The notes: generated by a model not told the origin, from the sequence alone. A stretch of 64,000 nucleotides of DNA from Nitrosopumilus sp. (GCA_965249555.1 OZ252243.1:1920001-1984000); one strand, 5' to 3'. Counted from the first letter of the stretch, positions 3,041-34,984 are shown. Numbers and translations: made by a program.

Positions 3041-3345
3041 ATTTTATTTAAAATAATTTTGATAGTCGATGTCATCCTGCCAATACCTGCAGCTGCCACT
3101 GTATCGAGGGTGATTTTTTGAACTTTGGAATTTCCTTTTAGCATTTTTTCTGTAATGATATTTGCAACTGCCACTGCATTTGGAATTGAATTTCCATTTG
3201 CTTTAAGAATAACTTGATTTTTGCTTCCCAGTATAGATAAAACATCAATGGTTGATTGCATTACAGGGTCATTTCCAATAGTTATTATGGTTTCCTCAGA
3301 CTTGTTGGTCTGCTCTTGACCATATGGTTCATTTGTCTCTTCCAT
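3037..3345 (-). CDS. Alba family DNA/RNA-binding protein
   Basis: VILKANGNSIPNAVAVA...TSTIKIIL resembles the Alba fold. Confidence 0.75.
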   Translation of the reverse strand: MEETNEPYGQEQTNKSEETIITIGNDPVMQSTIDVLSILGSKNQVILKANGNSIPNAVAVANIITEKMLKGNSKVQKITLDTVAAAGIGRMTSTIKIILNKI

Positions 3346-29662: not shown

Positions 29663-30010
29663 TCATTGGTATATGTGGCAGTAGTGTAAAGAAGTGTAAA
29701 GAAATCTGCTATTGCCATACCAAACTGATGATGATTCCATGACAATATTGGCATGAATCGGTATGTCTGTAAAATGGTTCTTGATTGATTCATGAGTGTT
29801 CTCAACTTTTATGTTTTGTAATATCTTTCCGTCATTATCCATTGTTGCTACTTGAAGAGATTCCTTGTGCAAGTCAATGCCAACATACATGCCCTTGTCT
29901 TTTTTTGCCCTAATCTGTTTCTTTGGACTTTTCTTGGAATACGATGGATTACGAGTCCTGGATCTGGGTTCATTTTTTATGCTATCTGAATTCCTTCTTT
30001 TTGTATTCAC
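29663..30010 (-). pseudogene. Truncated IS110-family recombinase (DEDD/RuvC-like N-terminus)
   Basis: MYVGIDLHKESLQVA...IVMESSSVWY then truncated. Confidence 0.85.
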
Positions 30011-30021
30011 ATATAGTTATT

Positions 30022-30133
30022 TTATCATCTCAGAAAACATGCTCAATCCCCTTGGTTTCCCGTGCCTCAAGGCATGCAAGAAAGACGGAGATCATCCTCA
30101 TACCCTGATTTGTGCGTGAAGGTTGATACATAC
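30022..30133 (-). mobile_element. Miniature IS66-like remnant related to 6975-7374
   Basis: 30022-30108 resembles ~6999-7078; GATTTGTGCGTGAAGGTTGATACATAC matches 7348-7374 with one mismatch. Confidence 0.7.
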
Positions 30134-30389
30134 TTTTCATACTGTTAAATTCTTCCTGGGTTATTTCGCCTTTGACAAATCTGGTCTTAAGAAGTGTCAT
30201 TGGGTTTTCGGCAACTTGGACATTGGAAATAGGTTTGCTGGTGTCCTCTTTATTTTCCTTTACTTCTTTGATTTTATCACGAATGTAATTGTATAAAATT
30301 TCTGCCTAGTCTTTTGGTATTACAACAATTGTTCCTTCTGCATTTCGTCCTCAAATGGCCATATTATGACCAGCCTTTGACATCTGTCA
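30134..30389 (-). pseudogene. SHOCT-domain protein remnant
   Basis: Hand translation ENPMTLLKTRFVKGEITQEEFNSMK; stops upstream. Confidence 0.55.
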
Positions 30390-30539: not shown

Positions 30540-32400
30540 ATGACGAAGAAAATTAATAAAGAATCTGTAAACATAATAGATGAGAAAATATCTATTTTAA
30601 AGAAAAACTTTCCTGAATGCTTTATCGGGGGGGGGGGGGTTAAATTTTGATAGACTTAGAAACTCTTTAGGGGATCTGGTGGATACGGGGGATGAAAAAT
30701 ACACATTTTCTTGGGCTGGTAGGAAAGACACATTCGAAAATATTCAGACAACTAGCAAGGGAACACTTATTCCAGATAAATCTGAATCTGTAAACTTTGA
30801 TGATACGGAAAATCTTTTCATTGAGGGTGATAATTTGGAAGTCTTAAAATTATTGCATAAATCATTATTTCAAAAAGTTAAAATTATTTACATTGATCCC
30901 CCATACAATATAGGTAGTGATTTCATCTACAAAGACGATTTCAAAAAAGGTGTAAATAATTATCTGGAGCAGACAAATCAATCAAAAGACGGAATAACAT
31001 TAACCACAAATCCAGAAACATCTGGACGATTTCATTCTGATTGGATATCATTTATGTATGCAAGATTGTTTGTGGCTAAAAATTTACTTTCTGATGATGG
31101 TGTGATCTTTGTATCTATTGGTGACAATGAAGTTCATAATTTGAAATTTATAATGAATGATATATTCGGAGAAGAAAACTTGATATCAGAAGTTATTTGG
31201 CATAGCAAGTACACTACGTCAAATGATAAAAAACTCATATCTACACAGCATGAATATGTCATGATTTATGCAAAAAATATTCATAGAGCAAATTTCAACC
31301 TATTGCCACGTACAGAAAAAGCTGACAAGGATTACAAAAATCCAGACAACGATCCTCGTGGAAAATGGAAGCCCACACCAATACATGCAAAGAGTGGTAA
31401 AAATAATATAAAATATAATTTTACTAACATACGCAAGTTTGACGGCAAAAAAATACCCTCTTTTGTTTGGTCTGCACCAAAAGGAAGATATCCAAGATAT
31501 AGCAAAGAAACACTGGGAAGACTTGAGGCAGACAATAGAATAAGCTGTGGTATAAATGGAACAGGTGTGCCTAATTCCAAAACTTTTCTCAATGAAGTCC
31601 AACAAGGAATGGTATCAGGGTCTTTATGGAAATATGAGGATGTGGGACATACCCATGGAGCAAATGAGGAATTATCCGATTTGATAGGTAAGGGTGTTTT
31701 TGATAATCCAAAACCTGTGAAATTAATTAAAAGAATATTACAGTTATCAACAAATTCAAAAGGTAATGATATTGTATTGGATTTTTTTGCTGGCTCTGGA
31801 ACCACCGCACACTCTGTATTGGGATTAAACAAAGAAGATGGTGGAAATAGAAAATTTATTTGTGTTCAAATACCAGAAACAATAGAGGATGAACTAGAAA
31901 ACAAACCCACAATAGATTTCTTAAAAGAATTAAAAAAACCCATGAATATTTCCGAAATATGCAAGGAAAGAATAAGACGTGTTATCAAGAATCTAGATTC
32001 AAATCAGGGATTCAAGGTATTCAAACTTGCAAAATCAAACTATAACATCTGGGAGAATTATGATGGAAAAGACCAAAAAAAATTAAAAGAACAGATGAAA
32101 ATATTTGCGACCCCATTAATTGAAAAATACAAGGATATTGATGTAATTTATGAATGCATAATAAAAGAAGGGTATAATCTGAACAGTAAATTGGAAAAAT
32201 TAACTATCAAACCAAACACCATATACAAGATATCAAATGATGATAAAATATTCTATCTGACATTGGATAAAATAATAAAACTTGATAGTGTGGAAGAATT
32301 GGAACTTGGTAAAAACCAAACTTTGTTTTGTTTAGATTCATCACTGGATGACAGTATGAAGATGAATTTATCAAAACAATGTACACTGAAAACAATATAG
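30540..32400 (+). CDS. mod: Type III R-M methyltransferase Mod, frameshifted at a G13 tract
   Basis: NLFIEGDNLEVL, IYIDPPYN, VLDFFAGSGTT; the N-terminus from ATG 30540 (KISILKKNFPECF) joins the main ORF only if the G tract loses one G. Confidence 0.9.
30627..30639. repeat. Poly-G homopolymer (G13)
   Basis: TTTATC-G13-TTAAAT in strongly AT-rich context. Confidence 0.95.
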
Positions 32401-32401
32401 A

Positions 32402-34984
32402 GTGAATATTATGGAGATAGAATTTTTATCAAATCTTGACTTTCAATTAAATGCCATAAAGTCAACCGTATCCATTTTTGAATCTCAGAAATTTAAAAGG
32501 GACACTTCTCTCCTGATGGGGGAAATAATTTCAAATAATCTGAATCTAACAACACCACAAATACTAGATAATATAAAAAAAATCCAAGAAAGAAATAATA
32601 TTGATCTAGTTAAAGAATTAAAAGGAATGAATTTTTCAATAGAGATGGAAACTGGGACAGGCAAAACATATGTTTATCTTAAAACAGTATTTGAATTGTA
32701 TCAAAATTACGGGTTCAAAAAGTTTCTAGTAATTGTACCCTCTGTTGCAATACGAGAGGGGGTGATCAAAACTCTACAAATGACACAAAAACACTTTAGA
32801 GATATTTATGATAAAATCCCTTATGATTATTACGAATATGATTCAAAGAAAATCAATCAAATCAGGCAATTTGTAAGATCTAATGATATTCAAATTATGA
32901 TCATGACGATTGACTCTTTTAATAAAGATAATAACATAATGAATCAAGCACAGGACAAACTAAATGGTGAAAAACCAATACACGTGATAAGCAAAACAAA
33001 CCCAATAATGATATTGGACGAGCCACAAAACATGGAAAGCGACAAAACCAAAGATGCGATATCTAACATGAAACCGTTATTCACATTAAGGTATTCTGCA
33101 ACTCATAAAGATGTTTACAATCTTGTATACCGTCTCAGCCCAGTTAATGCGTATAACATGAATCTTGTGAAAAAGATCGAAGTTATGTCAGTAATTAAAA
33201 ACAACAAATTTAACCACTTACTTATCAAATGTGAAAAAATTATAGCTGAAAAGAAAGGAATCAGGGCAAAACTATCGCTTAATAAAAAAACTGAAACGAA
33301 TTACAAAGAAAAATTATTTGTGATTAAAATTGAAGACGATTTGGAACAAAAAACCAACAATCCTGAATATAGTGGATTCATAGTATCTGAAATTGATGCA
33401 AAACGTAATTTTATCAGATTTACAAATGGAATCAAAATAAAGCTTGGTGAGGGGGAGGGCACAGACAGAGAAGAAATAATGAAAAACCAAATTAGGCAGA
33501 CAGTAGAAGAGCACTTTGAAAAGGCCGTGAGATTGAAGAAAAAGGGAATAAAGCCACTATCATTGTTTTTTATAGATAAGGTGGACAACTATGTCCCAAA
33601 AGATGGGTTCATAAAAAAAACATTTGAGAATTCATTTGATAAATTAAAAAAGAATTATCCACAATTTAAAAATTTGAAGGCAAAGGATGTTCACAAGGGA
33701 TATTTTTCTAAACGAAAATCAGATAGTGGAATGGAGAATGATAAAGAGGTATTTAATTTAATAATGAAGGATAAAGAAAAATTAATCTCTTTTGAGGAGC
33801 CAGTTCAGTTTATCTTTTCACACTCAGCACTAAGAGAAGGGTGGGATAATCCAAACGTGTTTAACATCTGTACACTAAATCAGACGAAATCTGTAATCAA
33901 AAAAAGACAGGAAATAGGGAGGGGGATGAGACTGCCAATAAACCAAGAGGGGGTAAGAGTCCATGGAGACCAGAATATTTTGTCTGTAATCGCAAATGAA
34001 CACTATGCAAATTATGCGAAAACACTTCAATTGGAATATGAGGAAGAATATGGGTATGGAAATTCCCCTGGAATTCTTGATAGTTCAGAAAGAAAAACAC
34101 TGAAATTAAAAAAGGGTTTTGAGTTAAATCCTGAATTTCAGAAACTTTGGAAAAAAGTATCAAAAAAGACAAAATATGCGGTATCTATTGACACTAAACA
34201 TCTGATAAAGTCATGTGTGGAAAGGATAGACTCGTCTGTTACCGTGTCCCCAATCAATATCGATATTATAACTGCAACGCTGTCGGTAGTAGGAGATGAT
34301 TCAGAGGTAAAAGTGGACACGGATATTGTTGGAATGGGTGGTGATAAGTTTGAAACACAGTTTTCAATTCCCAATATTATTGAACATTTAGCCAACGATA
34401 CAAAATTAACACGTAATACCATATTATACATATTAACAAAAACCAGTAAACTTAATCAGATTTTTTTGAATCCACAATTTTTCATATCCAGAATATCAGA
34501 TATTATAAAAGATGAATTGAAAAATTTTCTGGTAAATGGTGTAAAGTATCAAGAAATAGAAGAATGGTATAAGATGGAATTGTTTGAAGATATTATAACC
34601 CATAAAGAGGTTGTTTCTGTAAAACACTCCATATATGAGAAACTGATTCGTGAATCTGATGTTGAGGAAGGGTTTGCCGTAAGCCTCGACAAACAACCCA
34701 ATGTCAGATTATTTACAAAATTACCAGATTGGTTCAAAGTGCAAACTCCAATTGGTGGTTATAATCCTGACTGGGCTATTATGTTAAATGATATGGATGA
34801 ACATAAGAGATTACGTGAAAAACTATACCTTGTGTCTGAAACAAAGGGAGCCATTAGCCCCAGAAGCCGTTCAATTGATGAGAATGACAAGATCAGGTGT
34901 GCCAGGAAGCATTTTGCGGAAATTGACACAAAGTATGATGTAGTAACAAGCATCGATGACTTTCTAAAAAACCTCAAAAATTAA
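32402..34984 (+). CDS. res: Type III restriction endonuclease Res
   Basis: METGTGKT, DEPQ, RYSATH, LREGWDNPNVF, QEIGRGMR, C-terminal YNPDWA...ETK nuclease. Confidence 0.95.
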   Translation: MNIMEIEFLSNLDFQLNAIKSTVSIFESQKFKRDTSLLMGEIISNNLNLTTPQILDNIKKIQERNNIDLVKELKGMNFSIEMETGTGKTYVYLKTVFELYQNYGFKKFLVIVPSVAIREGVIKTLQMTQKHFRDIYDKIPYDYYEYDSKKINQIRQFVRSNDIQIMIMTIDSFNKDNNIMNQAQDKLNGEKPIHVISKTNPIMILDEPQNMESDKTKDAISNMKPLFTLRYSATHKDVYNLVYRLSPVNAYNMNLVKKIEVMSVIKNNKFNHLLIKCEKIIAEKKGIRAKLSLNKKTETNYKEKLFVIKIEDDLEQKTNNPEYSGFIVSEIDAKRNFIRFTNGIKIKLGEGEGTDREEIMKNQIRQTVEEHFEKAVRLKKKGIKPLSLFFIDKVDNYVPKDGFIKKTFENSFDKLKKNYPQFKNLKAKDVHKGYFSKRKSDSGMENDKEVFNLIMKDKEKLISFEEPVQFIFSHSALREGWDNPNVFNICTLNQTKSVIKKRQEIGRGMRLPINQEGVRVHGDQNILSVIANEHYANYAKTLQLEYEEEYGYGNSPGILDSSERKTLKLKKGFELNPEFQKLWKKVSKKTKYAVSIDTKHLIKSCVERIDSSVTVSPINIDIITATLSVVGDDSEVKVDTDIVGMGGDKFETQFSIPNIIEHLANDTKLTRNTILYILTKTSKLNQIFLNPQFFISRISDIIKDELKNFLVNGVKYQEIEEWYKMELFEDIITHKEVVSVKHSIYEKLIRESDVEEGFAVSLDKQPNVRLFTKLPDWFKVQTPIGGYNPDWAIMLNDMDEHKRLREKLYLVSETKGAISPRSRSIDENDKIRCARKHFAEIDTKYDVVTSIDDFLKNLKN

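Follow-up and report, generated by a model that had tools for sequence, protein, structure and literature searches.

The locus described here raises the question of whether an archaeal type III modification gene, interrupted near its 5' end by a run of thirteen guanines, is a broken gene or a gene that is switched off. Repeat-driven switching of restriction-modification (R-M) and surface genes is regarded as a distinctive trait of bacterial pathogens adapted to a host, and modH of Helicobacter pylori represents the poly-G type of phase-variable type III mod gene. A survey of 3805 type III mod genes, with a tract threshold of at least 9 for mononucleotides, found that 662 of them contain repeats (Atack et al. 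2018; PMC5909438); in its main text, as far as accessible, the term "archaea" is absent.

The gene lies on a 64,000-nt stretch of a Nitrosopumilus sp. genome (the window, equivalent to C1:1920001-1984000 of host genome G000; positions without the prefix C1 are those of the window). The host genome consists of a single contig of 2,230,439 bp, is 99.97% complete and has a G+C content of 34.4%. An archaeal amoA gene is present (AmoA match, E 1.5e-117), which confirms that the host is an ammonia-oxidising archaeon, as an initial annotation of the window had assumed.

Reading frames of the mod gene

Translation from the ATG at position 30540 gives MTKKINKESVNIIDEKISILKKNFPECFIGGGGVKF, after which two stops follow: the 29 residues encoded by the 5' part of mod (30540..30626, plus strand) lead into four glycines, VKF and the stop codons. 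The frameshift point is the G13 homopolymer itself (30627..30639, plus strand), which occupies codons 30-34. The rest of mod (30640..32400, plus strand), comprising 586 codons and a stop, is located one base off the start frame and reads (...GGGGLNFDRLRNSLGDLVDTGDEKYTFSWAG...) without interruption from the tract up to the stop at 32400, and no other stop or frameshift was found over these 586 codons. Since the start frame and the downstream frame are one base apart, a tract of G12, G15 or G9 would join them, and the gene is out of frame at G13 and G14. At G13, mod is OFF. The initial annotation had put forward this arrangement, with thirteen guanines behind the ATG, an OFF state at that length and a frame restored by G12 (or G9/G15), and direct inspection of the sequence and its translations bears out each part of it.

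A read-through protein (P0002) was built by a four-letter step in which ATCG is read as I, which is equivalent to G12. It is 619 residues long, stop-free and collinear with its homologues. In the ORF list the gene appears as GTG 30679..32400 (573 aa), and the copy in the protein collection (P0003) has the same form, also of 573 aa. The gene thus displays an intra-ORF repeat that is long enough to slip, the mononucleotide threshold being at least 9, and it is otherwise intact and restorable by a change in repeat length, two properties that characterise a contingency locus.

Type III identity and genomic surroundings

The part of mod that follows the tract matches the N6_N4_Mtase family (PF01555, E 6.2e-36), and P0002 is homologous to the solved type III Mod 6k0w_B (E 4.3e-68 over residues 15-523) and to the EcoP15I Mod 4zcf_A (E 3.1e-58). 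The motif DPPY (residues 119-122) is located ahead of FAGSG (residues 415-419), and both motifs are invariant or nearly so in an alignment of 40 Mod sequences, so that motif order as well as homology to solved proteins agree with a type III Mod. The adjacent res gene (32402..34984, plus strand) starts 2 bases past the mod stop and is open over 860 codons from the GTG at 32402, with an ATG three codons further in. It combines a superfamily-2 helicase domain (ResIII, 1.2e-16) with a C-terminal endonuclease domain (RE_endonuc, 4e-30), as is typical for type III systems, and matches the type III R-M endonuclease model NF012027 at 2.1e-86 with 290.7 bits, which is under the equivalog cut-off of 564. 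Both the assignment of mod to type III and the claim that res is intact, which had been made from the window sequence, are therefore upheld.

Upstream of mod, a short IS110-type transposase fragment was found on the opposite strand (29663..30010, minus strand); its match to DEDD_Tnp_IS110 is weak (E 6.9e-06, 26.4 bits vs a cut-off of 29) and suggests that the mod-res pair sits beside mobile-element debris. No tRNA genes were found within the 64-kb window, and hence no tRNA-linked island boundary is present in it. The distribution of type III mod in the genus is patchy, with matches at E <= 1e-60 in nine of 106 genomes, the host counted. Between the IS110-like fragment and mod, positions 30105-30135 contain a core of about 20 bases with up to 39 copies in the genome; in public sequencing runs this core has an enormous summed depth and many differing continuations, and it is a short dispersed repeat.

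The Mod N-terminus and the site of the tract

Homologues covering at least 97% of P0002 account for 107 of the 120 listed, the 13 with lower coverage including the 573-residue version encoded in the window and several others of some 428 residues; the best matches are 68%, 66% and 59% identical. When the first 110 residues of P0002 were aligned with P0004-P0059 (n=56), all 56 homologues shared one N-terminal pattern, which extends to either side of the tract position and reads M.KK.SKES.NI..EKI..LKK.FPECF before the tract, and the solved type III Mods align starting at residue 14-15 of P0002. Judged by these alignments, the 29 codons before the tract encode the true, conserved N-terminus of Mod, and the proposal that read-through restores a typical Mod N-terminus found support in every one of the aligned homologues.

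At the tract itself, the homologues carry F-[ST]-E-G-[KI]-[IL]-D-F and the host Mod F-I-G-G-G-G-L-N-F; relative to the homologues, a G12 allele encodes one residue more and a G9 allele a protein of equal length. GGG is absent from the first 90 residues of all 119 homologues, and the tract is consequently regarded as a novelty specific to the host lineage. The comparison of orthologous mod genes for tract presence and length, which the initial annotation had suggested, could be made in part: it reached back to a closest homologue that is 68% identical and tract-free, and met no GGG among the 119. The tract replaces a glutamate at position 31 that is at least 90% conserved among 40 aligned Mods, so that even an in-frame Mod might be impaired. 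In an AlphaFold model of P0002 (mean pLDDT 83.1, pTM 0.77), helices 12-23 and 36-43 belong to a small sub-domain at the N-terminus, and residues 29-33 between them are non-helical; the tract-coded glycines are thus modelled in a loop, where a variable glycine run is plausible. A start at GTG 30679 would cost 46 conserved residues, which correspond to this modelled sub-domain.

Tract length in public sequencing runs

Three public runs of one study, X1 and X2 from one sample and X3, were available in the form of contigs. One of these runs matches almost identically along the full stretch; this study may be the assembly's own source, and its runs are accordingly not treated as independent of the assembly. 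A fourth run, X4, which shared little with the stretch, gave no contig over it, and the public runs listed included none of RNA. A contig of 3675 bases in X1 crosses the whole tract and has one guanine more than the assembly (G14). The contigs of X2 break precisely at the tract, the left one ending at position 30626, and G14 is present on the right one. X3 contains two short, separate unitigs for G13 (depth 50.2) and G14 (depth 64.9), flanked by contigs with depths of 1022 and 632. Against the G13 of the assembly, X1 and X2 thus read G14 and X3 reads both lengths; the three runs are contigs of one study, for which homopolymer error is possible. No G12 or G15 allele was present among the contigs of X1-X3, a form of data in which rare variants are dropped, and the two lengths that were seen are both OFF.

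The length of the mod tract is thus unsettled or variable, as it differs between data sets and within X3, and the split between G13 and G14 could be a read or assembly error at a long homopolymer. A uniform G12 in all accurate reads had been named beforehand as the outcome that would speak against a switch; the public contigs read G13 and G14 instead. Metagenome contigs were scanned for two exact patterns, the left flank of mod plus G8 and the surface-gene leader described below plus G8, and no copy from another strain was found.

Long G/C runs and giant surface-protein genes

A first-order model predicts 0.0007 G/C runs of 13 or more in the whole host genome. The run lengths are bimodal: the genome contains 51 runs of length 6 and 7 of length 7, vs eleven that reach 8 or more, with lengths of 8, 9, 10, 10, 11, 11, 11, 11, 12, 12 and 13. 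Of the ten runs of at least 9, eight lie at the 5' end of a gene that encodes a surface protein or belongs to an R-M system.

Five of the genes concerned are paralogous. Measured from stop to stop, the giant surface proteins that they encode have 1579-1948 residues; they contain fn3 and bacterial-surface Ig-like domains and are identical in their 15 C-terminal residues. Their 5' regions are 94-97% identical, and all five contain a pure G run within the signal-peptide codons (MNKMLFNALV-GGG-VVLFAISLLASAEA). Three carry G11 and are in frame (C1:499852, C1:1798981 and C1:1833927); the other two are out of frame, one with G10 (C1:2133085) followed by 1941 open codons, and one with G12 (C1:2178472) followed by 1619. 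Across the five genes, 1563-1941 open codons follow the run, and ON and OFF lengths co-occur among these paralogues, at different loci. Further members of the same leader family are a giant gene at C1:708997 with G12 in its 5' coding part, out of frame, for which G10 or G13 would fit, and a giant gene at C1:46418 with G11 about 60 bases upstream of the start and a duplicated leader. A 4014-codon paralogue with the same leader (near C1:527060) has a TTG start and a run that is broken by an A (G6-A-G4), and from its sequence it looks like a locked, presumably locked-on, version. The 5' region of the surface genes had no DNA match in any of 80 congeners.

Several other runs were observed. The G9 at C1:2051566-2051574 lies in a region of small ORFs only, and the G8 at C1:343400-343407 is in frame within a 382-residue protein that has a signal-peptide-like start and no Pfam match. 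An intergenic G10 (C1:1551230-1551239) is located between a TFB gene and an ABC-ATPase gene; the orthologous site after the TFB stop carries C10 in congener G082 and C11 in congener G032, and its tract length thus varies.

Repeats in Type ISP genes and the multi-locus pattern

Two paralogous Type ISP R-M genes, each with Mrr_cat_2, ResIII, ISP_coupler, N6_Mtase and Type_ISP_C domains, contain dinucleotide repeats. One carries (GA)16 (C1:78938-78969) and would be in frame with 17 or 14 units; the other carries (GA)24 (C1:123184-123231) and would be in frame with 23 or 26, so that both genes are one GA unit short of or beyond the frame. Each repeat splits the Type_ISP_C specificity domain, with profile positions 1-163 matched before it and 159-340 after it.

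Among the eight clean coding cases (the five surface genes, mod and the two Type ISP genes), three are in frame, which is about what freely drifting lengths would give, and a second lesion is absent from all five out-of-frame genes. The repeat-bearing R-M genes, namely mod and the two Type ISP genes, are all three OFF in the assembly, as would also be the case if defence genes were decaying in culture. Taken genome-wide, the repeat pattern has the look of contingency loci and fits poorly with the ordinary decay of pseudogenes in a genome that is rich in A+T. The similar repeats in other R-M and surface genes, which the initial annotation did not have, lend indirect support to a switch at mod and carry more weight than the mod tract by itself.

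Mismatch repair and related genomes

A profile search of the complete host genome for MutS domain V (PF00488), MutL (PF01119) and NucS_C (PF01939) gave no match; as controls, the same three profiles gave matches in 11, 11 and 6 of 14 reference genomes, respectively. On the analogy of repair-poor bacteria, slippage products in long runs would go uncorrected under these circumstances.

Of 81 genomes of the genus, 43 contain runs of ten G or C. Most genomes of at least 1.9 Mb have many such runs and most small ones have 0-2; the counts are of overlapping windows and include some matches at contig ends that are probably artefacts. Several G/C runs of congeners directly precede signal-peptide-like ORFs (loci L021, L031 and L043). 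A tract at the 5' end was found in three of 14 mod-homologue genes when 106 genus genomes were searched. Both mod homologues of the congener G031, L012 and L014, are located a few kb apart on one contig (C69) and have poly-C tracts of C10 (approximately 3304-3313) and C12 (approximately 1490-1501), respectively, at most 5 bases from the expected 5' end; in L012, an ATG lies upstream that is not in register with Mod when the tract is C10. The position of these tracts differs from that of the host mod tract, which indicates an independent origin.

A probable slippage-driven contingency locus and its alternatives

We consider it probable, with room for doubt, that the G13 tract makes mod a slippage-driven contingency locus that is currently OFF. 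According to this explanation, polymerase slippage during replication would change the number of guanines at codon 30 of mod and, as genes for MutS, MutL and NucS were not found, the change would probably escape correction. Lengths divisible by three (G12, G15) would give a full Mod of 619 or 620 residues and with it type III methylation and restriction; at G13, G14 and other lengths, translation would end after about 35 codons and no Mod would be made. Res must form a complex with Mod for cleavage, according to the accessible part of a review (PMC10609329). As Res depends on Mod for DNA recognition, the OFF state is expected to be harmless, methylation and restriction being switched off together. 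The slippage rate, the reversibility and the benefit of such changes are inferred. The initial annotation had proposed a slippage-based ON/OFF switch of methylation and restriction: the anatomy of the locus, its OFF state and the parallel loci speak for this proposal, and the in-frame allele that it calls for was missing from X1-X3, where only G13 and G14 occur.

The most serious alternative, which we nevertheless regard as unlikely, is one-way inactivation, with mod as a young pseudogene in which an indel at a mutable G run was an accident rather than the turn of a switch. All mod lengths seen (G13, G14) are OFF and the three repeat-bearing R-M genes are all out of frame; moreover, the patchy occurrence of type III systems (9/106 genomes) and the adjoining IS110-like fragment are what dispensable, horizontally moving DNA would show, and the tract has overwritten a conserved glutamate. 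Against an accident of this kind stand the 586 codons of mod and 860 codons of res that are free of a second lesion, a condition shared by the OFF surface genes (1941 and 1619 open codons) and by both Type ISP genes. An accidental indel would further have required that a G12-13 run arose at a place where none of 119 homologues has even GGG, in a genome that has hardly any other long G/C runs, those present being concentrated at the 5' ends of surface and R-M genes.

Two other explanations would dispense with the OFF state altogether. Mod might be made from G13 or G14 by RNA-polymerase slippage, by ribosomal frameshifting or from a start at GTG 30679, the last of which the initial annotation had listed as an objection to its own reading; we rate this possibility as improbable. 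Transcriptional slippage on long homopolymers does occur in bacteria, and a 573-codon ORF opens at GTG 30679 and is the form recorded in the protein collection, but the 46 residues that this start would lose are conserved in 56 of 56 homologues, include two modelled helices and belong to a region common to the solved Mods. A miscounted homopolymer, with a true tract of G12 or G15, mod ON and G13 as an assembly or polishing error, appears very improbable. Long homopolymers are error-prone on every sequencing platform, and the assembly (G13) disagrees with the contigs of X1 and X2 (G14); however, no contig has G12 or G15, both lengths seen are out of frame, and G14 stands on high-depth contigs in two runs. 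The three paralogous surface genes that were assembled in frame with G11 likewise argue against a miscount, since they indicate that the assembly does not systematically break such tracts.

Comparison with known phase-variable systems

[quoted passage not shown] It resembles the modH type in having a G run of at least 9 in the 5' part of mod, a length-dependent frame, an adjacent and intact res gene, and several repeat loci in the same genome. Unlike these systems, it belongs to an archaeon and a free-living chemolithoautotroph, and its tract occupies the site of a Glu-Gly pair that is conserved in homologues.

At the level of the genome, the closest parallel is Campylobacter jejuni. That species is not known to have MutS/MutL-type repair, and canonical mismatch repair was likewise not found in the host genome; both also have a low G+C content, rare long G/C runs that are concentrated in surface-structure and R-M genes, and a mix of ON and OFF states. 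C. jejuni NCTC11168 has 29 poly-G/C tracts of at least 7, as stated in the accessible part of the source (PMC4965091). The host, which has about 10 tracts, differs in its domain of life and in not being host-associated. Its runs are located in the signal-peptide codons of genes for giant fn3/Ig-like secreted proteins, whereas the targets in C. jejuni are glycosyltransferases.

In the literature searched, outside which most subscription journals lie, no description of a repeat-switched mod gene in archaea was found, and no relevant report of phase variation in ammonia-oxidising archaea or Nitrosopumilus; the statement of the initial annotation that such a switch was not known to be described in ammonia-oxidising archaea accordingly agrees with the search. 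In their accessible parts, two reviews of archaeal R-M mention phasevarions no more than in passing or among their references (PMC10609329, PMC11033074), and a homopolymer survey of 2010 took in 18 archaeal genomes in a statistical manner (PMC2831843). A preprint (10.1101/2025.10.21.683753) states, in the text accessible, that contingency loci have been described in archaea and cites its references 13-15, of which reference 13 concerns bacteria and reference 14 repetitive elements and human disease.

Implications for the biology of the host

Beyond mod, the host genome looks organised around repeats of this kind. We tentatively propose, at a little less than even confidence, a multi-locus phasome in which about a dozen repeats stochastically toggle at least five giant surface proteins and three R-M systems, of which one is type III and two are Type ISP; it apparently extends to a larger-genome subgroup of the genus. 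In this repertoire mod would be one of about a dozen genome repeats, the others gating the two Type ISP and several surface genes. The combination suggests population-level bet-hedging, most plausibly against viruses, the most likely benefit under pressure from viruses being a switch in defence and in surface exposure. A phasevarion, in which mod would drive an epigenetic regulon, is at most a possibility.

If true, the phasome would be the first multi-locus contingency repertoire in the Archaea and in a free-living chemolithoautotroph, and would imply that virus pressure, and not animal hosts alone, selects for such switching. The accessible part of a 2025 review treats the restriction of multi-locus phase variation to pathogens as an open question and archaea as unexplored (PMC11868660). 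This question could be tested in an ammonia oxidiser that can be cultivated and has about a dozen candidate loci. The finding also bears on how homopolymer "errors" in such assemblies are handled and on how archaeal methylomes and defence repertoires are read, as "pseudogenes" that contain repeats may be switched-off genes, and it bears on how marine or soil nitrifiers cope with their viruses.
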